Of a stretch of 64,000 bases of DNA, positions 1 through 63,829 are shown piece after piece. The first letter of the stretch is position 1, and each line of letters starts with the position of its first letter. The translations under genes and the position numbers were made by a program. Origin of the DNA: Cetorhinus maximus (lineage: Eukaryota); the NCBI RefSeq assembly GCF_964194155.1, contig NC_135881.1, positions 133,300,001 through 133,364,000 on the forward strand, in the 5' to 3' direction. The notes under the pieces are model-generated. The model saw only the letters and a list, made by a program, of their open reading frames with translations, was not told the origin of the DNA and searched no databases.

Positions 1-741
1 TTTTTACAGCCCCGTTTCTCGCCATGTTAAAAACGCATGTTTATCTATTGCTTTAGTCTGAGAAAATTAAGCAAAGTTTTTCGTTTACGTAAACAAATCC
101 AATGAGTCAGATTGGAGTGTTTTAATTGGGGCCAACTGGCTTGAATGTTTTAAGCCTTTTTAAGACCTAATTGTTTCACGTTATTTGGAATAACTTTATA
201 AAACGATTCTTTCGGAAGTTCGTTAAAGTTAAGACTAAAATTGCCCACAGAACGTCAACTAATTTGTTGCGATGCCCCCATTTAGTTGACCACTGGATCT
301 CAGACACATTAAAAACTAACTAACGACTAAAATATATTTGTAAGTTCAAATTTGATTTTTTTTTTATATAAGATGAATAATAACTGCACTGGGCAAATGG
401 TGTCAAACATCTTAAAGTAAAAGATGAGAGGATCAGCGTTTCGTACTTTGAAAACTTTTCTATATATTTCACGTTTTTTTCCCCGAAAAGAGCGCTGGAA
501 CATGAAACATCACTGGATTCCTTAGAGTATTATTTATTGGCTGTGCTGTGTTTACTTTGGACCCTGTGTGCAAATATGTCCTTCTATGCGGTCCGCTTAA
601 ATAACTGCAGAAAGCATTCGTGGTTTGTAACTTATCTGACAAGTTTAGAATGTGGCTACAATTGACTCCGGAGCGTGGGCCCGTGCTATAAACTATAGTA
701 GGCATTAATTTTTACAGCATAGCTCACGCCCAAAAATAAAA

Positions 742-755
742 AGTTCACAAGGTCA
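742..755 (+). promoter_or_regulatory. Perfect DR2 nuclear-receptor element (RARE-type) in the HoxA10 intron
   Basis: AGTTCA-ca-AGGTCA preceded by an A-rich run, about 100 bp into the intron. Confidence 0.6.
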
Positions 756-856
756 GAATAAAACCCCCTTTGTTACGCTTGTTGGCTGTACCTGCCACGT
801 CTACCCGTTTCTGAGTGCTGGCTGTATAAACTCCCCTCTGCCTCTTATTTACCTAC

Positions 857-1616
857 CTTTTGTTTCTTTCTCAGGAGAGTTTTTACTGCTTTCTGAAGGG
901 ACTGGAGATGACTCTTCGTTCGCTGAAGAAGCCGGAGCTTCTGCCTCTTCTCTTTCCGAACTGCAGGTTAAATGGCCGGGGGATGTCCCTTCACTTCCTT
1001 TTCTCCCCAACTCAGTCGGGGTCGAAGCTGAAGAAGGGGGTGTTCCAAAACGGATCTGGGACTGGGGTACGAATGGAGAGGCCCCAACCTGCCCCGTGTT
1101 GTTATAAAGTGTCTGTTTGGATGTCGGATAGGCTTGGGACAGACGGAAATAGCCAGGGACAGGAACCCCGCCGCTAGTAGTCGTGTCACTATTGGAGCAC
1201 GAATCTGATGTTAGCCTTGGGAACGTGGAAAGATCTGTTGCTGCTGCGCTTTTGGGACATTTCTCCGAATCATATAAACAATATGCATTCTCTTCTTTGA
1301 TATTCTGGGGGAAGGAACATGCTGCTACTTGCTGGGTTGCAGGTTGTTCCATGCGACAGGACCTTGGGGGATCTGACCAGACCTCCATCCCGCTCATGTA
1401 AGGATGAGAAGTCAGGACCATATTCTGAGAGTTGCTCTCGCTGCGTTTGCTCAGAGAAGGGAAAAGTCCACAGTTCTGGGTGCCGTAAGACAGCTCAGAG
1501 GCAGGCGGCAGGTACACGCTGCTGTTGGGGTAATAGGTTCCTTCCCCGCCACGGCCCACGCTGATCAGAGAATCTACTAAAAAGGAGTTTGCAGACGGGC
1601 TGTCTGAGCATGACAT
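857..1616 (-). CDS. HOXA10: Homeobox protein Hox-A10, coding exon 1 (homeobox exon lies outside the window, below position 1)
   Basis: ORF 849..1616 begins MSCSDSPSANSFLVDSLI and contains IKEENAYCLYD and VPVPGYFRLSQAY, motifs of Hox10 exon 1. Donor AAAG|GTAGGT, exon ends at 857; 760 nt, phase 1. Lies next to HoxA11. Confidence 0.95.
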
Positions 1617-1667
1617 TGTTGTGGGGTAATTTGGCGAAAGCAGAAGATATCCAGTTCAGGCTGACAT

Positions 1668-1900
1668 TTCTTGTGCAAACACGCTGAATATGATTAGAGA
1701 TACCTCCGCAGCACGACAGGCGGAATGAGCCAATCGAATGGCACAGTTGGACATAAGCCCCTCCTCCACGGAGGGCTGCGTCACGAGAACTGCAATAAGG
1801 TCACCATATGTATTCGGTAAACTGCAAAAGCCTCTAAATGCATCTTTATTTACTCGGTTCTACTTTATTGGAATCACGTCCTTCAAATAAAATAAAAGCG
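1668..1900 (-). promoter_or_regulatory. HoxA10 proximal promoter / 5' region
   Basis: CpG-containing segment immediately upstream of the start, with a CCAAT box near 1730 and a CGTCAC motif near 1779. Assigned mainly by position. Confidence 0.45.
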
Positions 1901-4900
1901 GGGCTCCAATGTGTAACGGGGTATCACCAGAAGGTTCAGCAATGCATAACGCGGCGTTACTGAGTCATAGGGGCAATCCGTTTATTATTTTAAATTGTTC
2001 ACATATGAAGTTGACAAAGGAGAAAGTTTTAGCCCTGTTATTATGCAGTTTTAATCACACGCTAAGATTCCCTGGCGGCTACAGGCGAGAAAACATGAGT
2101 AATCTTGACTTTCACGGGTCTGACTGGGATTAACTCGCCGGTTGCTGCTACATTTTCACAGTCCTCACTATAATTCTGATCCACACTGGGGCTCTGCTGA
2201 TTGTTACTTCCAGTACTATCCTGTGACGCGTGGTCTGAACATACAGCCGCTAGATTGCATTTCTAGTTTGATGTTTGTAGTCTAAAGTTTAGTAGGTTAA
2301 TGCAACGTGCTGTAGCTCTGTAGGTTAAGTGTAGAAGGTCAGTGACAACAAACTAATAAAGTAACATAACCCATTTATTTCCTTTCCTCTTCTATTTCAC
2401 CAGTATTACATATTAGAAGTTAATTGAGCCTTGACCATTTCTGATATTTTATACTTACCATCTCAATAAATCGAAACATTTTCAAAATGTTTTAACCATG
2501 TGTTCTTCGGCTGTCTGGGCTACAGTAGAGAGCATTTACCACATCTATAAAATCGATCTCATCATTTCGTCTTAAAAAGAGAAAACAAGGCTGTTAAACA
2601 GAAATTTACAAGACTCTCAGCTACAAACCGGTCAAGTTTAAGACAAGGCGCTCAACAGAAGCTTCATCCAGAGTTCCTCTCGCCACCCTATCCGAAAGGT
2701 AACTGTTGAAAACAAAGTCAGACAGGAAAACTGCAACTACCCTGCCTCTGTTTCAGGAGGGAAGCGGGAGCTTCGGTTTGTGAACTTTTCTTTGGAATTG
2801 GGGTGGCGTTCAAGGACAAATATAGACCAAGTGACGATATTATCCTTATTATTAGTGCCAGCAGAAGTTAAGTGATATAGGAATTAAGGAGTAAGCCATC
2901 ATCCCATTATCCCCGCTCCCCAACCCCCACAAATAAAAACATCTTGGCCAAAGGAAACGTGCGTGTTTACTAATGCGTGCGGACAGTTTCTCTTCGAATT
3001 GATGATTTTGTGGCATATCTGTACAATGTGACATGTATCAATGCGGCTCCAAATAGGAGACCTGCTATCTCTACTTTGTTCGGCCACCTCTGTAATCAAG
3101 TGCAGCCAACAATGACGCTCTCAAATGTAGTCCTTAGCTTGGGATCGGGAGTAAACAGTGTGATTTCACAGTGACAAAGGACTTAATCTTCAGTCTCTGG
3201 CATTGCTGCGTTTTACTGAGAGTTCATTTTAAACCGCCCGCGAACTTGTCCCCACCACCAGCAAACCCCATCTCTGCACTATTATTCCAATTGTTGTTAT
3301 TTTAACTTCTGGCGCTGGAATAAAGCTCAGAAAATGTTGCTAATCCAAAGCAGGTTATTCAAAATATCGTTTGTGGTAAAAGCCAGCGGGATGTGAGGGT
3401 CGGTCTTGCACGCATCGTGTTTGCTAAGGGGCCGTCTCAGAGGATCCCTTATTCTTGCTTGTTTTTTTTAAACACAAACAACTGCTTAGAATTATCACGG
3501 TCGTCCAGAATACCTATAAAAACTTAAATGTGCTTTATTAAAAAAAAAGAAAATTTTCCTTTTGCGGTCCCACTGTGCCCATGACACGTATGATCACGGG
3601 AGCATACAAAGATTTAATGGGAGGGAAATAACAATTGTCATCTATAACAGAGTCTCATATATAAAGGCTCAAGCTCCTGTACACCAAATGCTAACTAGCA
3701 GCGCGTTTATGTGTTGAAGGGAGGGTATTTATCTGGTTCTCGTGGTAAATATATCATTGCTTAATACATTGATTCCATATTTGGATAATTTTATTCGTGC
3801 ATTTTTGGATGGGTAATGGGCTTAAACGTTTATAATCCAGTATCCCAGTAAAACTGTAACGGGGATAGGAGATTGGCTGCTGCAGTTTCTAAGGCCACTG
3901 CAGTCATTTCTGGACTTTATTGGTAGTAACGGGACGAGGGCCGTGTGACTCCCTGTATACATTAAAAACACACGCACCGGGAAGTCATTGAAACATGAAG
4001 GACTTGCGGGGGGAAAAAGTTTCTTCCCTAGTTTCTAAGGTGTCGTAACTCCTCATTACGGCATCGTTAACAGTAAAGAAATATGATTAACTCTGCCGAG
4101 AAGGAGCTAGGGCAGATGAAATGGCTTCCCCGTGTAACATGACAAAAAAATATAAGAAATAGTTTTAGGAGCCGCCTAAATCCGCCTGTTGTGCACCATT
4201 TCTTGTGGCGTTTAACACATCCCCCTTGACATAAGAAAGAATAACGAAGACAATTTTCTCTTCGCCAAGCTGTATCGATCGTGGCTATTGCAAGATTTCT
4301 CCATTTCTCCTTCAACGCTCCAGCAATAAACAAACGTCTTGAAACATTGCATCGAATGAGGTAAACGATATGTTGTCCAGCCAGTGGTGAAAGAGCGAAC
4401 GTAGAAAGCAGTGGAGTCAGTGGTGGTTCCCTGGTAAATAAGTGATTTCAAAGCCTGAACAGAGCAGGCTGACCGCACTCATAGCTCGGACTCGTTCTTA
4501 GCCTAGATCGTGAACTTAAGACTGAAAGACAGACAGAACGGGTCTTTCACTGGGTTTTCCTAAATAAAGATTCGAAGAGAAGTCTCATGTATCCACCTCT
4601 TGCCGCCCTGAGTGAGATTACTTGCAATTATTTACCTCTGATTTCATGGACAAAATGTATGTAACACTTTGTGAAGTCTTAAAGAAATCGCCTCACTCTT
4701 CAAGTGTACGCGCCATTGTATGTGCGCAGTAAATTCTTTTCAGTCTACCAACTAGAGCAAGTACTTGCCATCCGTGAACTCTGTTTTAACGTAAATCCCC
4801 TTTTTCTTACAAAAATATAATTCTCTATGATTCGCTAAGGTTGCTGGAGAGGTCAAAGAAAGATAATTGTTTTGTGCCTCAAAAATAAATCTGAAAACAA

Positions 4901-36045: not shown

Positions 36046-36261
36046 ATGTGAGAACTCCAATTCAAGGTGTCTTGATGCTATTTATTGTTTAGTGTTTTGA
36101 ATTTTCAACCATAATATTTGATTCCTTGTAGTTGCTATATATATATAAATATATATATAAACCTATATATAGCAACTACAAGGAATCAAATATTATGGAT
36201 GAAAATTCAAAACACTAAACAATAAATAGCATCAAGACACCTTGAATTGGAGTTCTTACAT
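36046..36261. repeat. Near-perfect 98-bp inverted repeat with a 20-nt TA-rich loop
   Basis: Arm 36046-36143 is the reverse complement of 36164-36261 with two mismatches. Confidence 0.95.
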
Positions 36262-43660: not shown

Positions 43661-44793
43661 TGGTAAATGAACAAAGGGATTTAAGAGCCGATCCCATGTT
43701 TGCACACTCTTGGCAAGGAACAACATCCACAGGGAGTGCAATGCATGAAATTTTGTGCACAAAGCCTGTGGTTTTTCATTCATTCATTTTAATAGATGAA
43801 AAATCACAGGCTGTGCACCTACAATTTCCTGCATTGTGCTTCCTGTGACTGCTGCTTCCTGCTGGGACTGCAGAATCAGCCCTTTAGGGTCCAGGTACAG
43901 AAGTCATTAAAAATTAGCTCGCAGGTGTAAAGAGAGCCATTTAAATGTTCAAAGAATGCTGGACCTCACAACAAAAGGTATCACGTTTAAATGCAAGAAA
44001 GTTGTAAAGCACTGTTGGGATCTGATTTGAAACATTCTGCTCAATTTTGTGTACATTTTATAAATTAGGAACACTTTGTACATGCTTTGTTGTTTCTGCT
44101 GTTGTTCATCCTGCACTAGCTACTATTTTTGTTATTGTTGTAACTGCTGCCACTTTCATCTTGTGCTTTTTGGCCAGGATCTCCCTTGGATCTCACAAGG
44201 GAAAAGATGGCCTATTCAGCTTCAGAATGTGAGACTTGCCTTGCTTGAGGTGAGGAATTTCCCTTTCTGTTACATCATCTCATGAATATTTTGCACCTTC
44301 ATGAATATTCAACTGTTCAAAACTGGATTTAATCAAATTAAAAGTGAACGATGTATATTGTTTCATTAAAAAAATCTTAAGTAAGATTGTTGCTTCCCAA
44401 GAATGGCAGATATGGTCAGGATGAGGATGAGATATTCCCAACTGAAGTGTTAACTTTGAACAATAGGTGGGATTAAATCAATCTATGGCCCACAATTATT
44501 TTTATAATTATCTGCTTAGAAGTAGGCTGTGCAATACTTACGAGTCCAGATTCACAAATTACATTTATGAAGGGGAATCGTTAATGCCATGAAAATCTAC
44601 AGTAGATATAAATGAAGAACAAGCACAGTACACAATGTTAATGGGTACTGCATATGAATGTGAATTATACATTCCACATTAATGGGGATCAGGTGTGAAT
44701 GAGAATCAAACATAATACTAAATGACAGTGCTTCATGCAGTTAGCTTGTGTTTTTATGTTTTGATCTGTAAAGCCCAGTAAAGTGCACTCTAT

Positions 44794-45418
44794 GGGCAGA
44801 ATTTAACGCCTCGCGCGCCCAACCCAATCCGGCATAAAATAGTGTGAGATATGTTGGTTGGTGGAGGATTGAAGCGTGTCTACCGACAATTAAGATGGCA
44901 ATTAAGCCCATTAATGGTGCAATTGACTTCAATATTTCATTGCCTGTCCAACCTCATGGTTGGCAAATGGGCGAATTGGCCAGGCGGCCTTTGCATTTTT
45001 CACCAAACCTCATCCATGGGTGGGATGAGATTTCCATGATGTAATAAGATAAAATTAATTTCCTGTGGGCAGCATTTTCATTAGTTAAATTTTCAGGTGA
45101 TTGATTATGATGCATGGACACTTTATTTTCAGCTTTTGTAACCATTTTTGCTTTTTCAGGTCTTCAGCTCCCTGATGCAGTTCTCTGCCTTCAGGGAGCT
45201 TTCTGTCAGCGCTGGCTGCACCTGCGTTGACATCATCGCCTGCCCTCTTCCTGTCCCCATCCCGGCAGTGCTGAGCTTTTCAGCGTGTGTTTCACGCTGG
45301 CTGACTGTTAATTGGCCAGCCAGCATGAAATCGCAGTCAGGGGCCAATCACGGCCAGCGGTCCATATCCCAACCACTCCTGCTGATTGCGCCTGCCCACT
45401 GAGCTGAAAATTCAAGCC
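44794..45418 (+). mobile_element. Non-autonomous Harbinger-type element (MITE)
   Basis: Ends GGGCAGAATTT...AAAATTCAAGCC with a 3-bp TSD TAT/TAT. Both subterminal regions resemble those of the Harbinger at 47590-51202. Confidence 0.75.
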
Positions 45419-45524
45419 TATGTGTAATTATGGTCGGCCAGCTTATTTGAAGTTTTGGCATGAGCCTCACGTACAATGTGAAACAGGTTGCCTGGCAATA
45501 CTTTGTGGCTTTGATTGGGTTACA

Positions 45525-47337: not shown

Positions 47338-47589
47338 GGGTACAATAACATAATGGCTATGTTACTGGACTAGTAATTCAGAGGCTTGGCAAATAATGAA
47401 GAGTTATGAGTTCAAATCCTGCAGGAACTAGGGAATTCAGTTAATCAAATACATCTGAAATGAAAAGCTGGTATTAGTATTGGGACCAAAGAATTATCAA
47501 TTTATTGTAAAAACCCACATGGTTCACCAATGTTCTTTAGGGAAGGAAATCTACTGTCCCTATTCGGTTGGGCCTATATATGACTCCAG
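47338..47589 (+). mobile_element. tRNA-derived SINE, 5' part (interrupted by the Harbinger insertion)
   Basis: Degenerate A box and B box GAGTTCAAATCC (~47408). Body aaaacccacatggttcaccaatgttctttagggaaggaaatct matches the reverse complement of the LINE 5' end at ~55010-55306. Confidence 0.75.
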
Positions 47590-50500
47590 GGGCAGAATTT
47601 TTCGCTGAGTTGGCGGGCACGCACCCGACCCACTCAAGCGTAAAATAGCGCGTGATGACGCCAAGTGAGCATCCCGACATCATCGCATACTTGCGCGATA
47701 TTTTGGTCGGCGGGCACAAGCAGGAGTCGGAACTGTGCCCGCCATTAAGATGGCTAGTTCAGGCCATTAAAAAGGCAACTGATGCCAATTTTACATTGCC
47801 TGTGCGATTTTGCACTCATCGCATGGGCAAAGCGGGCAGGCGGCAAGCTCTCAATTTACAAAACCTCATCTACGGGTGGGATAATAAGGGTCAGCAGCAT
47901 TGACAGCTTGAGTAGTGAGGAGTTTGGTAGATAGTTTGCAGCTGGTTACTTATTGGTACTTGGCACTTCATCTCTGTTTGGGGCTTCATTCTTAGCATTT
48001 CCAGGCTTCATTTCTGGACTTATTGGTGTCTCCAAGGACCCCGGAGGATTCAGACCATGTGGACTTTTCCAGCTATCAGGCAGCCTTCTGTAACCCTGGT
48101 AATGGGGATTGTGGTCTCCGCTGGATGCACCTCCTCCGAGGAGGAAGAGAGGGGCAGAAGGGAGAGGAGGCCAGGTGTCCCAATGCAGCTTCCAGAGGAG
48201 TGACCTGGGGGAGGAGAGGCACAGGCACAAAGGGCGCAGGGCCAGCAGGAAGTCCAAGGCATCAGAGGCCGCAGAAGTCGCCACTACCCTGCTGCCAGGG
48301 TTTACAGGCGGCGATGCAGCTACCTCAATTTGTCCGAGGTGCAACGCCGAAGTAGGCTCCATGTCTCATTTGTCAGACGATTGGGCCTGAGATCACCTCC
48401 AACTGTGCCTCCACAAGGACAGTGATAGAGAGAACCATAGGTCTTCTGATGATTCACTTCTGATGCGTGGACCGTTCAGGGGGAATGCTACAAAACTCCC
48501 CAGAGCAGGGGTCACCGACCGTGGTCACATGCAGTGCTCAGCACAGTCTGGCACTGGCAAGGGGGGCCCCACTGGAGGAGGGAGATCTTGGCACGGCTGC
48601 ACAGGCCACAGATCATGAATCCGGTTGTGAGTCTGCAGAAGGGCACAGCGAGGAGAATGCTGAGGGCGTGGAGGCAGACCTCAGTAACCTCCAGGGAGGC
48701 AGGGACACCACGGATGCCTTGATCTAATGCTCCTTCGGCTGGGCTGCCAAATATATGCTACCATCTCATGCCAGGGCTGCCGCCTCCATCCCAGGTGTCT
48801 GAAATTACTCTTTCATTTGAACCCAAAGTCCACTCAGTGCCTGTGCAATAAACTTTAGAGCCACCCAAGTCCAGCATTACATACTGGCGTACCCTGCACC
48901 ACATTAAATAAAAAAGGTGAAGCACACTCAGGCCATTATGGCAGAAGAAAATTTATCTCATTTTGACATCCCAAACAAATTAACAAAAACCTCTCTGGTC
49001 TTCAACCCCAGATCAGTAAACATAAACAAAACATTGCACAACAGAAGATTGCCCATGACGAGTCTCTCTTGTGCTCACGGTGCCTTAAACTTATGTTTGC
49101 GAGTGTTGCGTCTTGATGCTCCCCACTCGTTGGCAGCGGCATTGGAGGCAGCCGGCTGACTCTGCTGTCCTGTTGGCCTTGATGACCTTGGCAGTCACCT
49201 TCTGGCCAGTGGAGCCTGTGCTGGCACCTCCTGGGAGGGAACAGCCAGTGCTATGACTGGCATCTCCCCAATCACCACAGCACCATCAGATGCCATGGCC
49301 ACTGGCAGAAGGGCGGAGGAGCTGCTGCCCTCATTCAGAGCACCCTGAGAGGAGACCACAGAGACAACAGGCAGCTCGTGCGCCAACGTGAGGTCGCTCT
49401 GGACCTCCCTGCTCACTGTTGATGGACAGGCACCTAGCTGGGATACTGAGTGCCTCATCCATCTCCCACACTGGCACTGACCACCTGAAGTCATTGCCTG
49501 TGTGAGGGGTTGCAGGTCTAAGCGCATCCCAGGAACCCCTGATTCTGTACCTGGAGCTGCCTCTCCATGAGAGTTACCACTCTCTCAATGGAGGAGGCAA
49601 TGCGCTCGGCAATGAGGGTCAATGCAGTGCTCACGCTCTGCATGGACTCCTCCGTAACGGAGACTATGGCATGCCTACCCTCACGGATCTCTGCCAGATC
49701 CTCCTGCACATCTTGCTGGACATCCAGCATCTGTCGCCTAATGGGTGGCTCCAGAGGCTCAACATCTGCCTTCGGCTCAGCATCGTCCTGGTCTCCAGCA
49801 GTCCTCTGACTGCTGGCGCCCTGGGCACTCTCTGCCTCTGCCTGCACCTCAAGTGCGTGTGAAGTGCCCTCACCGCTGCACACCAACATTCTAGCCAAAG
49901 ACCTAATGTCCACGGAGGTGCTGATATCTGCGCTGGTGCCTGGTTCAGAGAGCGGGTATGACGCTTGTGCATCTGGAGCCTGGCAATCCTCTGGCATCAG
50001 GGGTGGCTCTTTGGGGTCATACAATTGAGTGCATGCTGGCAAATCTAAAGGAGAACAATGACAAGTCATTAGTTTAAGTCATCACACTGTCAATGCGCAT
50101 GCCAGGCCCCCTGGTGAGACACTGGAGATCTGCATTGTCTTTTAATGATCAATGGGGAATCCAGTTTTGAGGCTCCCATCAATAAAGAGATTACACAAGA
50201 ATGTTTGCACCATCCAAAACTCTCACCTCTGTGCACTGCAGTCTTACCTTCACCTGACACCTCAGCCTCTCCGCGGCCAGTTGACCAAGCTGCGTGCTGC
50301 TTCTCCATCTCCAAGGCAGCCTGCTCTTACCTTGTGAGGAACTGGGAGATTTTGGGGGCCTCTGCATGTCCGGGACCTCTCAATATTGTTATGGGATGTC
50401 TTCTGCTGAAAGGACAGAGGAGCATTGATTAGTTCACTCTCATTGCAGCCTGGCCAACCCCACCTGAGGAGCACCTTGCAGGGCATATCCAAGTCGTGGT

Positions 50501-51202
50501 CCTAGAGCTGCAAGGCTCACCCCTTTGGCCAGGTCCGGCAGTTGACACTCAGGCTCTAACACCCCTGAGCTCCACGGGGGGTGGGGAGATGGCCAGATGT
50601 TAACACTGTAACACATTGACGCATGCCAACACAGTACCCACCCTTCCTGTAGTAGGTCATTAAACTTCTTGCGGTACTGCACCCAGGTGCACCACACCAC
50701 ATCATGGCTGCTGAGCAGTACTGCCACCTCCTCCCAAGCTCTTTCTGTTAGGTGCGGTGGCCTCCCCTTTCCATCCCTGAGGACAGGGATGTCCCTCCTG
50801 GCAGCCACCTTCTCCAGCAGGACCGCGAGGCACTCATCAGAAAACTGGGGTGGCTGAGTGCCCACCTGACCTGCCCTCCCGCCTGGCACCTGCAGCCACA
50901 CTGGAAGCCATAATTTCCTGTTGACAACACCAAAGATGTCTTCTCCACTGGCAGCCTTCCAGGAGCTTCCTGGGCCATTTTTAAACCGGCTACTGGGTCA
51001 CCATTGGACCCGGTGGCCAACAGGCCCCCGCCCCTGCTCGGCCCTTCCCAACCGGTGAGGAGCCACATTTCATGCTGGGTGGGCCTTAATTAGCCCGCCA
51101 GCATGAAATTGCGGTTGTGGACCGATCGTGGGTAGTGGCCCATTTCCCGGCCACTCCAGGGCCCGCCGACTGCACCTGCCCACCAAACTGCAAATTCTGC
51201 CT
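47590..51202 (+). mobile_element. PIF/Harbinger DNA transposon, internally deleted and degenerate
   Basis: TIRs GGGCAGAATTT / AAATTCTGCCT, TSD CAG/CAG. Plus-strand transposase remnants YPAARVYRRRCSYLNLSEVQ (~48285) and ASTRTVIERTIGLLMIHF*CVDRSGG...VVTCSAQHSLALARG (~48407-48565). Convergent minus-strand Myb/SANT-like gene. Confidence 0.9.
50640..50901 (-). pseudogene. Harbinger Myb/SANT-like DNA-binding protein, first exon remnant
   Basis: PQFSDECLAVLLEKVAARRDI...AWEEVAVLLSSHDVVWCTWVQYRKKFNDLL is typical of the trihelix/MSANT partner protein of Harbinger transposases. Further remnants at ~50260-50380 and ~49200-50050. Confidence 0.75.
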
Positions 51203-51360
51203 CAGATCCACAGAAATTTGATTGACTCTTAACGGCCCCCTGAAACAGCCTAGCAAACCAATCAGCTGTCTCAATGACAAATAGGGATGATCAATAAGTA
51301 ATGGTCTTGCCAATGATGCTTTCAACCTGTGTATGAATCTATAAAAGAAACAAATGAATG
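51203..51360 (+). mobile_element. tRNA-derived SINE, 3' part with LINE-shared tail
   Basis: Resumes at (c)agatccacag...ttgactcttaac...cctagcaa and ends atagggatgatcaataa...tgaat, matching the 3' tail of the LINE at ~52050-52110. Confidence 0.75.
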
Positions 51361-51399
51361 ATCACTTTTCCAGTGTAAAAGAAAGTAGAAGACAACGAG

Positions 51400-51720
51400 C
51401 TTTTAAAAGAAAGAACCTTAATTTATATGACACCTTTCATGACTGCAGGTCATGCCAAAGCACTTTACAGCAAATGAAATACTTCTGAAGTGTACTCAGT
51501 GCTATAATGTAGGACACATGTCATTTAATTCGTACACAGCATGGCCCACAAACAGCCATGAGATAATAAGCAGATCATCTATTTCAGGTTTGGCCGAGGG
51601 ATAACTATTGGCCAGGACACTGGGAATAAGTCTCCAGCTCTTCTTTGAAAAATGTCATGTGACTTCCATTATTCATCTGAGAGGGTGGACAGGGTCTAGG
51701 TTTTCATCTTATCTTCGACA
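51400..51720 (-). mobile_element. DeuSINE-like (SacSINE1-type) SINE, 3' two-thirds
   Basis: Minus strand has the Deu-domain-like gtgtcctggccaata...tatccctc and gtgtcctacattatagcactgagtacacttcagaag, followed by an L2-like tail. Confidence 0.6.
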
Positions 51721-52043
51721 GGCTTCCCAAGTGTTCAAGGCATTAAAACCTACATAAGCATCACGGCTCCTCATAGCCACCCCATCTTCTACATGAACAC
51801 AAAGGATTTGCACACAGTTGCTGTTCTGATGATATTTGACCGCATTAAATGCACATCACTGACCATTATGCAGGAAGCAATATGACACTTGCAATACATG
51901 GCAGACCACAGATCTAGCATTTTTGGAAGGAAAAGATACACTTAGGGGATGGCTGTTAGGAGACTAGGGTTAACCTCTAAATCCATGGTGACTGCTTCAC
52001 TGAGAAGCTCCTGAAGAGGAAGAGCACTTTCGGCTAGAAATCA

Positions 52044-55000
52044 TTTTTCTTATTCATTCACGGGCTTCACTGGCTAGGCCAGCATTTATTGCCCATCCCT
52101 AGTTGCCCTTGAGAAGGTGATGGTGAGCTGCTTTCATGAACCGCTGCAGTCCATATGGTGTAGGTGCATCCACAGTGCTGCTAGGAAGGGAGTTGCAGGA
52201 TTTTGACTCAGCGACAGTGAAGGAACGGCGATATATTTCCAATTCAGATTGGTGAGTGGCTTGGAGGGAAAATTCCAGGTGGTGGTGTTCCCATCTATCT
52301 GCTGCCCTTGTCCTTCTAGATGGCAGTGGTTGCGGGTTTGGAAGGTGCTGTCTGAGGAGCCTTGGTGAATTCCTGCAGCGCATCTTGTAGATGGTACACA
52401 CTGCTGCCACTGTGCGTCCTTAGTTGAGGGAGTAAATGTTTGTGGATGTGGTGCCAATCAAGCGGGCTGCTTTGTCCTGGATGGTGTCAAGCTTCTTGAG
52501 TGTTGTGGGAGCTGCACTCATCCAGGCAAGTGGGGAGTATTCCATCACACTCCTCACTTGTGCCTTGTAGATGGTGGACAGGCTTTGGGGAGTCAGGAGG
52601 TGAGTTACTCATTGCACGATTCCTAGCCTCTGACCTGCTCTTGTAGCCACAGTATTTATATGGCTAGCCCAGTTCAGTTTCTGGTCAATGGTAACCCCCA
52701 GGATGTTGATAGTGGGGGATTCAGTGATGGTAATGCCATTGAACATCAAGGGGGGATGGTTAGATTCACTCTTGTTGGAGATGGTCATTGCCTGACACTT
52801 GTGTGGCGCGAGTGTTATTTGCCACTTGTAAGCTCAAGCCTGCATATTGCCCAGATCTTGTTGCATTTGGACATGGACTGCTTCAGTATCTGAGGAGTTG
52901 CAAATGGTGCTGAACATTGTGCAATCATCAGCAAACATCCCCACTTCTGACCTTATGATGGAAAGAAGGTCATTGATGAAGCAGCTAAAGATGGTTGGGT
53001 CGAGGACACTACCCTGAGGAACTCCTGCTGAGATGTACTGGATGTGAGATGACTGACCTCCAACAATCACAACCATCTTCCTTTGTGCTAGGTATGACAC
53101 CAACCAGCGGAGAGTTTTCCCCTTGACCCCATTGCCTCCAGTTTTGCTAGGGCTCCTTGATGCCACACTCGGTCAAATGCTGCATTGATGTCAAGGGCAG
53201 TCACTCTCACCTCACCTTGGGTGTCCAGCTCTTTTGTCCATGTTTGGACCAAGGCTGTAATGAGGTCAGGATCTGAGTGGCCCTGGTGGAACCCAAACTG
53301 GGCATCAGTGAGCAGGTTATTGTTAAGCAAGTGCCGCTTGATAGCACTGTTGATGATCCCTTCCATTACTTAACTGATGGTCAATAGTGGACTAACGGGG
53401 CGGTAAATGGTCGGGTTGGATTTGTCCTGCTTTTTATGAACAGGACATACCTGGGCAATTTTCCATATTTCCAGATAAATACCAGTGTTGTAGCTGTACT
53501 GGAACAGCTTGGCTAGGGGCGTATCAAGTTCTGGAGCACAAGTCTTCAGTACTATTGCTGGAATATTGTCAGGGCCCACAGCCTTTGCAGCATCCAGTAC
53601 CTTCAACTGCTTCCTGATATCACGTGGAGTGAATCGACTTAGCTGAAGACTGGCATCTGTGATGCTGGGGACATCCGGAGGAGGCCGAGATGGGTCATCC
53701 ACTCGGCACTTTAGCTGAAGATTTTAGTTATCTTTTGCACTGATGTGCTGGGCTCCTCCATCGTTGAGGATGGAGATATTTATGGAACCCCCCTCTCCAG
53801 TGGGTTGTTTAATTGTCCACAACCATTCACGAATGGATGTGGCAGGACTGCAGAGCTTAGATCTGATCTGTTGGTTCTGGGATCGCTTAGCTCTGTTTAT
53901 CACTTGCTACTAATGCTGTTAGGCTCGCAATTAGTCCTGTGTTATAGCTTCACCAGGTTGACACCTCATTTTTAGTTATGCCTGGTACTGCTCCTGACAT
54001 GCCCTCCTGCGCTTTTCATTGAACCAGGGCTGATCCCCTACTTGATGGTAGTGGTAGAGTGGGGGATATGCCAGGCCATGAGGTTACAGATTGTGTTCAA
54101 GTACAATTCTGCTGCTGCTGATGGCCCACAGCATCTCATGAATGCCCAGTCTTGAGTTACTAGATCTGTTCAAAATCAATCCCATTTAGCATGGTGGTAG
54201 TGCCACACAACACGATGGTGGGTATCCTCGAAGTGAAGGTGGGACTTCATCTCCACAATGACTGTGCGGTGGTTACTCCTTTCAATATGGTCATGGACAG
54301 ATGCATCTGCGGCAGGCAGGTTGGTGAGGATGAGGTCAAGCATGTTTTTCCCTCTTGTTTGTTCCCTCACCACCTGCTGCAGACCCAGTCTAGCAGTTAT
54401 GTCCTTTAGGACTTGGCCAGTTCGGTCAGTATTGGTGCTACCAAGCTACCCTTGGTGATAGACATTGAAGTCCCCCGCCAAGAGTACACTCTGCACCCTT
54501 GCCACCCTCAGTGCTTCCTCCAAGTGGTGTTCAACATGGAGGAGCACTGATTCATCAGCTGAGTGGGGGGATAGGTGGGGGGCGGTACTTAGTAATCAGC
54601 AGGAGGTTTCCTTGCCCATGTTTGGGCTGATGCCATGAGACTTCATGGGGTCCAAAGTGGATGTTGAGGACTCCCAGGGCAACTTCCTCAAAAATGTATA
54701 CCACCTGTGGTATACTGTGCCGCCACTTCTGCTGGGTCTGTCCTGCCAGTGGGACAGGACATACCCAGGGATGGTGCTGTTGGTGTTTGGGACATTATCT
54801 GTAAGATATGATTCCATGAGAATGACCATGTCAGGCTGTTGCTTGACTAGCCTGTGAGACAGTTCTCCCAATTTTGGCATTAGCCCCCAGATATTAGTAA
54901 GGAGGACTTTGCAGGGTCGACAGGGCTGCGATTTCCGTTGTCATTTCCAATGCCTAGCTCGATGCTGGTGGTCCATCGGGCTTTGTTTCTTTTTTGTGAC

Positions 55001-55306
55001 TTTGTAGCCATCTAATACAACTAAGTGGCTTGCTAGGCCATTTCAGAGGGCAGTTAAGAGTCAACCACATTGCTGTGGGTCTGGAGTCACATGCAGGCCT
55101 GACTAGGTAAGGACGACAGATTTCCTTCCCTAAAGGACATTAGTGAACCAGATGGGTTTTTACAACAATCGACAATGGTTTCATGGTCATCATTAATTCC
55201 AGGTTTTTATTGAATTCAAATTCTACCATCTGCCTTGGCAGGATTCAAACCTGGGTCCCCAGAACACATACTAGTCCAGTGACAATACCACTATGCCATT
55301 GCCTCC
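52044..55306 (-). mobile_element. Apparently full-length CR1-group non-LTR retrotransposon (single degenerate APE-RT ORF, tRNA-like 5' head)
   Basis: Endonuclease fragments KLGELSHRLVKQQPDMVILMES and LDLILTN...SNHRTV. RT fragments KAVGPDNIP, QFGF, ALDINAAFDRVWHQG, GVPQGSVL, MFADDC. Tail ends in (TGAA)n plus an A run. Confidence 0.9.
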
Positions 55307-56091
55307 TAAGCATCTGTAAGCATCTGTAGCTTTTCTTCAGCTGCCAGTTTTACCTACTAGAAAAGTATTCAGAACTGTGTGTAAAAGAGCTTCGCAGGAA
55401 ATAATGCCTTCCAGAAAGGGTGGGTATTTCCAACTCAGTTTTATGCCATGCTAGATGGATCTTGCAAAATAATGTGTGCAGCAGTGAAGAGTATACTTAT
55501 TGTCACCCTCCCCTGATATCAGCAAGCCTATTTCTAATTTTCAGCCAGGTATGAAGGACCTGGATTACTGCCTTGACTCAGTCAGTGATTTCTCACCATG
55601 TAGCTTTCACTTTTGCTTTTACTGGAGCAGGGCTTTTAATTCTAAATATGAATCCTTTGATGCATTTTCAACAGAGCAAACTCCAACCCTGCCACATCAA
55701 AGGAAACAATCTTGTCCAGATGTCTCCACTTTGCAGTGTGTGCAATTAGCTCACATTTCTGCCATTACTGCAAGTTACCTTTTAATGGTAAATTGGAATC
55801 CTTCAAGAGCTGCTGCCTAGGTAGATTTTACACTCTCAAGCCAAGTCTGCTAGCAGACAAACTCTCTTAACGTCTCTTTGCCCATTCAAATTAGGAGAAG
55901 GGAATCCCATCATAAAACTCTGCAAACGTGGGGCAGCATAATTCTATTTTTCTTTGAAAAATCAGGGCTCATGTTTAAAGTTAATGTATTACCATTACCT
56001 CCAAAAAGTAAAAGTAGGTGCACTCAGCACACTCAAGTGTTCTCTACAAATAGTTAAGCATTGTGTTTTCACATGCCTACAAAAATATAAT

Positions 56092-59735: not shown

Positions 59736-61296
59736 TTTTTTTTATTCATTCATGGGATGTGAGTGTCGCTGGCTGGACCAGCATTTATTATTCATCCATA
59801 ATTGCCCTTGAGAAGATGGTGGTGAGCTGCCTTCTTGAACTGCTGCAGTCCAAGTGGTGTAGGAACACCCAAAGTGCTGTTAGGGAGGGAGTTCCAGGAT
59901 TTTAACCCAGCGACAGTGAAGGATCAGCAATATGTTTCCAAGTCAGGATGGTCAATGGCTTAGAGGGGAACTTCCAGGTGGTAGTGTTCCCATGTATTTA
60001 CTGCCCTTGTTCTTCTAGATGGTAGTGATCGTGGGTTTGGAAGATGCTGTCTAAGCAGGCTTGGTGAGTTCCTGCAGCGCATCTTGGAGCTGGTATGCAC
60101 TGCTCCCACTATGCGCCGGTGGTGGAGGGAGTGAATGCTTGTGGAAAGCATGCCAATCAAGTGGGCTGCTTTGTCCTGGATAGTGTTGAGCTTCTTGAGT
60201 GTTGTTGGAGCTGCGCTCATCGAAGTAAGCAGGGAGTATTCCATCACACTCCTGACTTGTGCCTTGTAGATAGTGGACAGGCTTTGGGCAGTCAGGCAGT
60301 GAGCTACTCGCTGCAGGATTCCGAGCCTCTAACCTGCTTTCGTAGTCACAGTATTTATATGGCTTGTCCAGTTCAATTTCTGGTCAATGGTAGTCCCCAG
60401 GATGTTGATTGTGGGGAAATTCAGTGATGATAATGCCATTGAATGTCAAGGGGCGATAGTTAAGTTCTTTCTAGTTGAAGGTCATTGCCTAGCACTTGTG
60501 TGGTGCAAATGCTACTTGCCATTTGCCAGCCCAAGCCTGGATATTGGCCAGGTCTTGCTGCATTTGGACATAGACTGCTTCAGTGTCTGAGGAATTGCAA
60601 ATGGTGCTGAACATTGTGCAATCATCAGCGAACATCCTCACTTCTGACCTTATAATGGAAGGAAGGTCATTGACGAAGCAGTTGAAGATGGTTGGGCCGA
60701 GGACACTACCCTGAGGAACTCCTGCACTGATGTCCTGGAATTGAGATGATGGACCACCAAGAACCACAACTGTCTTCCTTTGTGCTAGGTATGATTGCAA
60801 TCAACAGAGAGTTTCCCCCTAATTCACATTTACCCCAGTTTTGCTCAGACTCCTTGATGCCACACTCGGTATAATCCTGCCTTGATGTCAACAGCAGCCA
60901 CTTGCACCTCGCCTCTGGAGTTCAGCTCTTTTGTCCTTTTTTATTTATTCATGGAATGTGGGCGTCGCGGGCTAGGCCAGCATTTATTGCCCATCCATAA
61001 TTGCCCTTGAGAAGGTGGTGGTGAGCTGCCTCCTTGAACCATTGCAGCTCATGTTTGAACCAAGGCTAAAATGAGGCCAGGAACTGAGTGGTCCTGGCTG
61101 AACCCAAACTGACCATCAGTGAGCAGGTTAATGATGACCCCTTCCTTTACGTTACTGGTGATGGAGCGTAGACTGATGGGACAGTGATTGGTCGGGTTGG
61201 ATTTGTCCTGCTTTTTGTGTACAGGACATACCTGGGCAAACATATTGCCGGGTAGATGCCAGTGTTGTAGCTGTACTGTAGCAGCTTGCCTAGGGG
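59736..61296 (-). mobile_element. Second, 5'-truncated copy of the CR1-group LINE
   Basis: Collinear with ~52044-53520: GVPQGSVLGPTIFNCFVNDLPSIIRSEVRMFADDC and the same 3' tail. Confidence 0.9.
60937..61049 (-). mobile_element. ~113-bp 3' tail of the same LINE family nested inside the second copy
   Basis: Interrupts ttttgtcc|atgtttg, which is continuous in the first copy at ~53232-53246, and repeats the tail gctaggccagcatttattgcccatcc. Confidence 0.85.
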
Positions 61297-61384: not shown

Positions 61385-62401
61385 CAGCTGTTTCCAAACT
61401 GTGGGTCATGACTTCAACTGGAGTTGCAGAAACAGCAATTGGAGTTGTGAACTTCCCATCCTCCAAGACTTCATCCTGTACTGAGGCCCAAGCAGCTTCT
61501 GGCCAAGTCCTTGCCTTGCTTGTTTTGTCTTCTCAAGACTATTTAAAAATGTCGCTTGCATGGTCACGGCCGCACACGGGCTTGGCTCTCACATCCGCCA
61601 TACCTCCCTACTGGCCACCACCTGCTGGCCAACCTGTGTTTGTTGAGGGGGAGGGGCTAATTACAATGTGTGTAGGGGGTAGAGGAGAGAGGCTGAATAC
61701 AGTGTATATATGTGGGGTGTGGAGAGGGGTTGATTGCAGTGTTTGTGTGTTTCTGTGTGGTGGGGAGGTAGGAAAAGAGCATCACTGAGTCTTATCACCG
61801 GGGAAGGTGCAGATCTTGGCTGAAACCTCAAGAGCCAGTGACTGCCAGACATTATGTTCTATGCATGTACAGAAACACTCCACTTTCCCCTTCCATTTTT
61901 AAGTAAGTTACTTACCTTGTGAATTAAATCCATTTTATTTTAAAACTGCAGTGTTTATACCAGAATCCAAAGTGAAACAGCAGCCTCAGGGACTATAAAT
62001 ATTATCTTGTGTTATTTGAAATCCTCAGTAGAAAATTAAAAGTTTATTTGACTCATCTCATGTTAAAATCAATGATCCCAGATGGTCTTTAGGGAACTTT
62101 GGTGGATTCGGCTATAGATCAGTAATGCTGAACATCAATAATATCCACTACTTGCTGGCCAAGATCCATGAGCTGGAGTGGCTCAGAAGAAGTAATGGAC
62201 TGGTGAGTGCTTAAAATAATAACATTTTTCAATGTAATTTAGAAAGATTTTCATTTTTATATGACATATCATATGTTGATCTATAATATGCAAACTTTAA
62301 TAAAATGCTGAATATTACTATGCTACTTTATTGCTGGTTTGCTTTCATTAAGTTTCAGGTATTAAATGGGGTCACATTGGAAACTTGTTTGGGAAGCACT
62401 G
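61385..62401. mobile_element. Non-autonomous hAT-like (Charlie/MER5-type ends) element inserted in a SINE tail
   Basis: CAGCTGTTTCCAAAC...GTTTGGGAAGCACTG termini; diverged 8-bp TSD ataaagtg/atgtaatg. The flanks rejoin into the DeuSINE-like 3' tail. Confidence 0.55.
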
Positions 62402-62830
62402 ATGTAATGCTTTTCACGTTCACCAGCATCTCAAACTGCTCTACAATGATGTACTTTTTAAAATGTAGTCGCTGTTGTAATGTAGGAAACAAATCAGCCA
62501 ACTTGCACTCAGCAAACTCCCACACAATCAATATGATAATGACCAGATGATCTGTTCTTTTGTGGTGTTGACTGAGGGATAAATATTGGCCAAGATACCA
62601 GGGTTAAATCCCCTGCTATTTTTCAGGTAGGGCCATGGGATCTTTTGCATGCACCAAAGCAGGTGGACAAGGCCTTGGTTTAACATCTTATCCAAAATAC
62701 AGTGTCGACAACAGTGATGTGATCCCTTAATGTTGCAGCCTTGAGTTTTGTGTAGAAGAACAAGAGTGGGACTTGAACCTGGAACCTTATGTTTCAAAGG
62801 CAAGTGGGTTACCAGCTGAGACATGGCTGA
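62402..62830 (-). mobile_element. DeuSINE-like (SacSINE1-type) SINE with tRNA-like head
   Basis: B box GGTTCAAGTCC on the minus strand (~62769-62779); Deu-like core cttggccaatatttatccctcagtcaacaccac. Its extreme 3' tail is at ~61355-61384. Confidence 0.65.
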
Positions 62831-63829
62831 TACTTGAATATGCAATACAACATGCGTGTTGTCATTGGCACCCTGCACTCTGAGGAAGCCAGCCATGAAC
62901 AGAAAACCGTGTATTCACCTTGCTTGTACATTGGTGTACTGAGAAATGTGAGATATTGCTGATGTCACATGTTGCAGCTTGAAAGGAGTCCATGACATAA
63001 ATGCTGAGGGTCACGGTGACCTTGACAGCACAGGCAGTACTGCCCACACCTTGGTTTGAATAAAGATTTGTGGTTGCAGCAGATAGCAAAGTTCAGTGAC
63101 AGCCTCCTTGGTGAAGAAAAGCCCTTCCTACATTGATCCTCAATAAAGCTGATAGAGGATAATTGCTCCCTGAAGACCCTCTGTGGATATAGCTTCCTCT
63201 TCAGTGACCTTCTTCTGCTTCCCCTGCAATGTGTTGTCTTCTATGCTAGTCTCTCTTTTCCTCCAGCCTCAAAGGCAATTCTATGACACCATCCAAGTGT
63301 ACAACCAAACCATTTGTGAATCAAAGAGAAACAAAACCTCCCTGTGCAAATAGTGAACTTTCCAGGGTGATACAATGCAACGAGAAAAGTCTACAAGACA
63401 CGCAGTGGCCAGAAATAACAAAGCACAAACTAATCTGTAAGCACAGCATGACCTGTAAATGTAACTGTTAAAGGGCCTTCCTGCAGATTAGAGCCATGAT
63501 GTGCTGTGCATGTTCAGCATATGGTCAGTAAAGTGCTGGGGTGGTGCAAGTTAGAAATCAAGGTCCTGCAAGAGTCATAGGACCCAATTTAAGTGTATCA
63601 TTCTCAACTCAGAATGCTGGCGTGGCAGTGCATCCTATCGCAATGCAACCTCCCATACAATAGGGTATGCGCGACACCTCCAGCTAGAAGTCTCCATGCA
63701 TCTCCTAACATCCATACTAGGTATTTAGCAGGCTGCTTACCAACCAAAGATAAAAACAGGCACTACATGGCCAAATTTCTAGGTCTACAATTTTCAGTAA
63801 AATTGAATCCATTTGTTCTGAATAACAGT

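Follow-up and report, generated by a model that had tools for sequence, protein, structure and literature searches.

Long interspersed nuclear elements (LINEs) are regarded as RNA polymerase II (Pol II) elements, and a tRNA-derived head is regarded as the mark of non-coding short interspersed nuclear elements (SINEs). In the stretch of Cetorhinus maximus DNA analysed here (contig NC_135881.1, positions 133,300,001 to 133,364,000; 64,000 nucleotides, hereafter the window), a LINE of the Zenon family opens with a tRNA-like head carrying A and B boxes of RNA polymerase III (Pol III) type, and a SINE in the same window is composed of the two ends of such a LINE.

Zenon LINEs and SINEs derived from LINEs

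The closest described elements are the elasmobranch Zenon LINEs CarCar_Zenon-1, ScyCan_Zenon-1, RhiTyp_Zenon-1, HypSab_Zenon-1 and SquAca_Zenon-1/2/3 (PMC13343379, Genome Biol Evol 2026), which have the same 5' sequence as the LINE of the window, a length of about 3.3 kb, one open reading frame (ORF) for endonuclease and reverse transcriptase (EN-RT), no ORF1 and a poly(A) tail; no structural difference from the LINE of the window was found. In the available text of that work Zenon is reported from five elasmobranchs, coelacanth and hagfish, its elements "universally lacked ORF1" and have a poly(A) tail, in contrast to canonical CR1 elements, and the elasmobranch Zenons are said to have been absent from repeat repositories before. 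Zenon-masked DNA makes up 3.2–6.8% of the genome in four sharks and 0.7–3.0% in three rays, against 0.018% in chimaera. Few copies have an intact ORF2, the counts printed there being 0/2313, 3/612 (stingray), 1/1419 (whale shark), 0/59, 0/396 and 1/294, with one further cell unreadable. A "CR1-Zenon like LINE" is named once in the available text of a whale shark preprint (10.1101/443036).

The preliminary description of the window treated the absence of ORF1 as unusual and left open whether the element was catalogued. The former premise was not borne out, since a Zenon clade without ORF1 is the published norm; as to the latter, the family has been catalogued in the form of consensus sequences (2026), and its tRNA-like 5' head passes without remark in the available text (PMC13343379). 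The words "tRNA", "promoter" and "polymerase" do not occur in the main text of PMC13343379 or in its preprint, and no SINE is described there.

SINEs that resemble their partner LINEs have been described in several groups. The deletion derivative Persaeus of Lepidoptera, a bipartite deleted LINE (SIDE) with a Zenon partner, resembles the SINE of the window in that its tail starts among the final ORF codons; by the account available in PMC6740152 it has neither tRNA homology nor a Pol III promoter, whereas a deletion product of the window type has a bona fide SINE shape. Bov-tA, AfroSINE and SINE2_Gav, derived from RTE and Vingi elements, contain 5' and 3' parts of their LINE, as here; in Bov-tA-type SINEs, however, the tRNA head was added later to a deleted derivative of a headless LINE, whereas here the autonomous LINE itself is headed (PMC5786205). 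In the available part of the same source RTE and Vingi are the sole LINE groups reported to lend 5' parts to SINEs, and a passing mention is made of RTE-1_DAn and related elements, LINEs of another clade with a tRNA-like sequence matching many SINE2 elements, which shows a precedent for tRNA-like sequence in a LINE. The shark SINEs HE1 (V-SINE, partner HER1; PMC3747384) and SacSINE1 (Deu-SINE; PMC5499810) are tRNA-headed and LINE-tailed like the one in the window and are set apart from it by other partners and bodies, as far as they are described in PMC3747384, PMC5499810 and PMC7245038. Thus the absence of ORF1 in Zenon, Zenon deletion derivatives (Persaeus, PMC6740152) and Zenon-tailed SINEs (PMC6685494, PMC11481361) are already known from the available texts. 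A search of the open literature (Repbase, Dfam, SINEBase and subscription journals were outside it) found no account of shark Zenon bearing a tRNA-like head or giving rise to a bipartite SINE. The family in the window is thus a known one, whereas its family-wide 5' architecture has apparently not been commented on.

Structure and identity of the LINE

The element lies on the minus strand from 55306 to 52044 (3.26 kb), as the preliminary description had delimited it from its letters. The Zenon-related features of the window are as follows.

55235..55306 (−): tRNA-like head, with the A box at 55298-55288 and the B box at 55251-55241
55017..55234 (−): 5' untranslated region (UTR) of the LINE, the body common to the SINE (assigned by pairwise alignments and by motifs in published rows)
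54911..55016 (−): pre-endonuclease linker, an A-rich stretch and then an open segment of basic character in the EN frame
52099..54910 (−): single EN-RT ORF, broken, with APE endonuclease, RT and C-terminal region
52044..52098 (−): 3' UTR, terminating in a decayed poly(A)
59736..61296 (−): second Zenon copy, 5'-truncated, 84% identical over 1210 nucleotides (nt)

When scored with the usual consensus patterns, the A-box-like 11-mer at 55298-55288 (−) has 0 mismatches and the B-box-like 11-mer at 55251-55241 (−) has 1, at a spacing of 47 nt. This is the sole A/B-box pair in the 64-kb window, both strands being searched, and no pair arose in 300 shuffles of the element. The Pol III boxes described earlier at the LINE 5' end thus stood up, and so did the statement that the endonuclease begins about 100 bp past the body with no room for ORF1: homology to the EN of intact relatives begins at element position 397, i.e., at 54910 of the window (hhalign probability 96%), about 105 nt after the body end at 55017, a gap in which ORF1 cannot fit.

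The head is a trait of the elasmobranch family and not peculiar to this copy. Published Zenon consensus rows (PMC13343379 supplement) were compared over the first 400 characters of each. In each of the seven elasmobranch rows, which represent five species, the A/B-box head and the body of the window LINE stand at the start and lead into the pre-EN stretch; none of the three coelacanth and hagfish rows has the head at its start. Five of the elasmobranch rows are 3244–3314 characters long, the other two 2886 and 3096, and both boxes are kept in them although the spacer between the boxes differs. Each of two body motifs of the window matches six of the seven elasmobranch rows and no other row, and a motif at the EN start matches the HypSab row. 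The head of the window LINE is closest, by eye, to the CarCar (white shark) and ScyCan (catshark) rows; it is, again by eye, about 20 nt shorter than the published heads, apparently through deletion.

The contigs of four public runs (organisms A, B and C), aligned to the window at 80% likeness, agree with the published rows. One of these runs (X1) may share the source of the window, the RNA nature of another (X15) is a guess, and summed contig depth is not equal to copy number. In X1, X5 and X9 each of the 26 bins between 52027 and 55328 has a summed depth above 3.4e5, whereas the four flanking bins reach 163 at most; the start of the repeat unit is plainly the head, and the EN start lies within the unit. 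One contig, among the 32 pieces listed of more than 1.2 million, spans 54800-55145 with 73 differences (21% divergent) and represents an independent copy of the head-to-ORF junction. No loose end marking an alternative 5' end at the EN start was found among the 24 listed (18,334 more exist), which is weak evidence.

Pfam RVT_1 is recognised in two frames of the window LINE (E 3e-9 and 2.4e-10), endonuclease matches are weak, and the EN-RT frame is interrupted by stops and frameshifts. At the stops at 53372 and 54178, both among the 40 differences listed, about 95% of the X1 depth reads otherwise, so the decay is private to this copy. Poly(A) appears in the loose-end consensus of contigs at 52062-52070, the second Zenon copy terminates in an A-run, and inspection by eye showed no target-site duplication flanking the window LINE. 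Identity with labelled consensus sequences, a single APE/RT ORF without ORF1 and poly(A) all place the element in Zenon; the marks of canonical CR1, an ORF1 esterase and the lack of a poly(A) tail, are absent, there being no room for ORF1 and a poly(A) end. The window element is thereby shown to be a dead copy of an elasmobranch Zenon LINE of about 3.3 kb with a single EN-RT ORF and a poly(A) tail.

The nearest full-length proteins, one of them from Branchiostoma, are 39–42% identical over the C-terminal 341 residues, the proteins compared including no labelled Zenon RT. The whale shark protein P0001 covers the pre-EN stretch at 54911-55016, and among the best 150 matches from 1.84 billion representative proteins no shark protein was closer, P0001 keeping the highest identity. 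A metagenome scan with a piece of the EN gave 86 pattern matches, none of which was confirmed; in the 38 loci found by a second metagenome scan, with an alignment, there was no head or body (blastn, best E 0.15) and no tRNA (ARAGORN). A 22-mer scan of prokaryote genomes gave no match, and the single match of a 17-mer scan of viral contigs was rejected as chance, similarity being confined to the 17 letters.

Two side observations concern these copies. The RT region of the second copy contains an inserted fragment, about 110 nt long (about 60937-61049), of a Zenon 3' end. In X5 and X9 (organisms B and C) single contigs match the 5' flank of the window LINE (55278-55700) with 17 differences in about 415 nt; they stop 20–29 nt inside the head, too short to count as bridging, and give a hint that the insertion may predate the split of organisms B and C.

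Origin of the head and proposed mechanism

L001, an intact relative of invertebrate type that may not be full length, carries an ORF of 1004 codons without an A/B pair upstream of it. No pair was found upstream in the nine related loci with upstream DNA, three of which have less than 50 nt of it. The head would have been gained in the elasmobranch line, because it or the box pair is missing from the coelacanth and hagfish rows and from L001.

The proposal for the locus, a headed elasmobranch Zenon LINE whose head is a Pol III promoter and from which a SINE arose by internal deletion, is given a probability of roughly 0.55. In the shark-ray lineage a tRNA-derived head bearing A and B boxes, now seen in all the elasmobranch rows, could have taken the place of the Zenon 5' end or been joined to it. 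The head would most likely serve as promoter, Pol III transcribing the whole unit, and this internal promoter would travel with every full-length copy. The EN-RT protein is expected, as in established LINE biology, to bind the 3' tail and to insert the element by target-primed reverse transcription. Loss of one internal segment, between the end of the body and the final ORF codons, gives the structure observed, a complete tRNA-headed SINE, which could then have spread as a family of its own. A single deletion suffices because the promoter and the tail recognised by RT sit at opposite ends.

The most complete form of this proposal is an autonomous 3.3-kb Pol III LINE that captured a tRNA promoter, purged its T runs, is translated from uncapped RNA with no in-frame AUG before the EN, has been maintained from the common ancestor of sharks and rays onward, reaching several percent of the genome, and gave rise to its own SINE by a single deletion. 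It is put forward tentatively, at somewhat less than even odds. A SINE-type head fixed on a LINE family that occupies 0.7–6.8% of seven elasmobranch genomes would make both the Pol III drive of an autonomous retrotransposon and the translation of its RNA open to test. The one-step route to a new SINE, with the middle deleted, reverses the order of events in the model of PMC5786205. The published Zenon genome fractions probably include the unannotated SINE, masked by the same consensus.

Transcription and translation of the headed LINE

Transcription of the whole element by Pol III is judged to have about even odds. Scarcity of T runs could be expected in a transcript read through by Pol III, and TTT is scarce in the identical columns of the two window copies (2 versus 8.2 expected; Poisson 0.012), in which AAA, CCC and GGG occur at expectation. 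As a sign of Pol III read-through this is suggestive only.

A number of observations weigh against Pol III transcription of the element. The window LINE copy alone has three T runs of 4–5, as expected (3 versus 3.2 in a first-order model), and the lack of T4+ runs common to both copies (0 in 1444 columns versus 1.5 expected) has a P of 0.23. Among the 14 control LINE loci without a head, one (L022) matches the window LINE in scarcity of TTT or surpasses it (0.41 versus 0.59), L011 and L022 are T4-poorer than the window LINE though headless, and in Tyr, Asn and His codons, too, the pyrimidine ending leans to C. ARAGORN at default settings and Rfam call no tRNA in the head of this decayed copy, and the relaxed ARAGORN match to it is unspecific, three of nine control regions matching too.

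Translation raises a further difficulty. Transcripts made by Pol III carry no cap, and in the EN frame no AUG precedes the first motif, so translation would need an unusual route. In six of the seven elasmobranch rows an AUG stands about 50–65 nt upstream in another frame (by eye; the frame was checked on the HypSab row and P0001); it has been lost in the window LINE copy. This AUG may belong to a short overlapping upstream ORF or provide a frameshift entry to the EN-RT frame. It was also observed that the out-of-frame AUG in the 55016-54911 region of the published rows starts the whale shark protein P0001.

The strongest alternative, serious though doubtful, is that Pol II makes the coding RNA, by host read-through or from a promoter in the body. 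The head would then be a folded 5' end of the LINE, e.g., an RNase P-type cleavage signal that frees a defined 5' terminus in the manner of the 5' ribozymes of R2 and RTE, and its Pol III activity would be of consequence for the SINE only. It gains from the weak T-run evidence and from the overlap of the A and B boxes with the D and T loops, since maintenance of the fold would preserve the boxes too. LINEs with 5' processing signals that contain no ORF have been described (PMC5786205), and the moth Zenon derivative Persaeus is described in the available text as spreading without a Pol III promoter (PMC6740152). What speaks for a promoter instead is the selective scarcity of TTT in the shared columns and the long variable stretch from the anticodon arm to the B box, which seems to resemble a SINE promoter more than a cleavable tRNA.

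Sense-strand T4 depletion was also noted in the headless loci themselves: L011 has 2 runs versus 10.7 expected in 279-3137, and L022 has 0 versus 4.6 in 1051-2679. Both were tried as candidates for tRNA heads and rejected, no A/B pair lying upstream of either.

Relation of the SINE to the LINE

The SINE of the window is split by an insertion (see below) into two parts.

47338..47589 (+): SINE head and first part of the body; head of Squalus type, boxes decayed (1 and 2 mismatches)
51203..51357 (+): end of the SINE body, immediately followed by the 3' tail of the LINE (last codons and 3' UTR)

Three alignments relate it to the LINE. The head and body of the LINE are matched by 47343-47589 (163 of 257 columns), its body end by 51198-51281 (69/89) and its 3' tail by 51257-51357 (69/101). 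The score of none of them was attained in 300 shuffles. The body and tail alignments overlap at 51257-51281, leaving no foreign middle, and the tail begins in the last codons of the LINE ORF. The same form recurs in the contigs, where 10 of the 15 joints listed (15,122 more exist) skip from 52094-52111 to 55019-55054, in all four runs. The element thus combines the features of a SINE2, namely A and B boxes at tRNA spacing and a multi-copy 3' tail common with a partner LINE, with those of a SIDE, i.e., a LINE 5' end joined to a LINE 3' end. By eye, TCAA is common to both breakpoints, in the published rows and in the tail; this would suit a template jump, the direction of which it does not give. 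The body motifs of the window had no match in the supplements of PMC7245038, PMC4824008 (all but one file) and PMC5786205, and a full-text search returned a single match, in an unrelated maize paper. The body may resemble AmnSINE2.

An autonomous LINE with a SINE-type head, the SINE being its internal-deletion derivative, was one of the two options offered in the preliminary description, and it fits best because the SINE consists of the LINE 5' part and the LINE 3' part with nothing between. The structure claimed there for the SINE is supported by the three alignments; sameness of the head does not extend to its subtype. Two head motifs of the window SINE occur, among published Zenon rows, only in the three Squalus rows, whereas the LINE beside it has, by eye, a head of the white shark and catshark type. 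This counts against direct descent: judged by its head, the window SINE is an older cousin and not a derivative of the window LINE's subfamily, and the LINE head subtypes appear to have turned over.

The other option, a SINE that captured an EN-RT ORF, amounts to a tRNA-headed SINE, already using a Zenon tail, from which the LINE received its head and body through template switching. Here the SINE is the donor, and either promoter model is compatible with it. The apparently older head subtype of the window SINE would fit such an order of events, as would the summed depth, which is higher in body bins than in the EN-start bin (depth not being copy number), and the repeated origin of Zenon-tailed SINEs, reported in the available texts for butterflies (PMC6685494) and bivalves (PMC11481361). 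Squalus LINE rows, however, have the same older head. The SINE-like part of the LINE stops exactly at the border of SINE body and tail, which is automatic with deletion and a coincidence with capture. Zenon-masked DNA, moreover, is nearly nil in chimaera by the published figures (0.018% versus 0.7–6.8% in seven elasmobranchs), so no high-copy SINE with this head is present in the sister group. For the last two reasons deletion is preferred over capture, which is considered unlikely.

The preliminary description also allowed for a head-to-ORF junction occurring only here, and the corresponding explanation, a SINE fragment by chance beside a 5'-truncated LINE or an artefact of consensus building in the published rows, is extremely improbable and in effect already refuted: both parts are very abundant and only one of the 32 contig pieces listed spans the junction, but the same junction occurs in the genomic copy, in 7/7 rows of five species and in the independent, 21%-divergent contig, and head and ORF start and end together with the depth profile.

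Other elements of the window

The insertion that splits the SINE and several smaller features were also recognised.

47590..51202: later insertion of 3.6 kb with short terminal inverted repeats, CAG on both sides and a Myb/SANT-like frame

The Myb/SANT-like frame has a match to Pfam Myb_DNA-bind_5 that stays under the gathering score (E 6.7e-4), and no transposase was seen in the insertion; a Flavi_NS1 match (E 0.061) was under the cut-off and disregarded. We take the insertion to be, probably, a non-autonomous DNA transposon of Harbinger type. A short element at about 44790-45420 is related to both of its ends (70% over 144 and 130 nt) and looks like a miniature derivative of it.

Two related SINE-like copies, at about 51390-51800 (−) and 62440-62700 (−), are 67% identical over 251 nt; they presumably resemble the Deu-domain SacSINE1 type. 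The hairpin at 36046-36261, with 108-nt arms that are 94% complementary and a (TA)-rich centre, is possibly a miniature inverted-repeat transposable element or an inverted duplication. An exon-like open frame at about 62040-62205 (+) ends at a GTGAGT donor site, which suggests that the window elements may lie antisense in introns of a host gene. A broken frame at about 62850-63350 (−) gave nothing in Pfam in three frames, and looks like a fragment of a Harbinger-type transposase.
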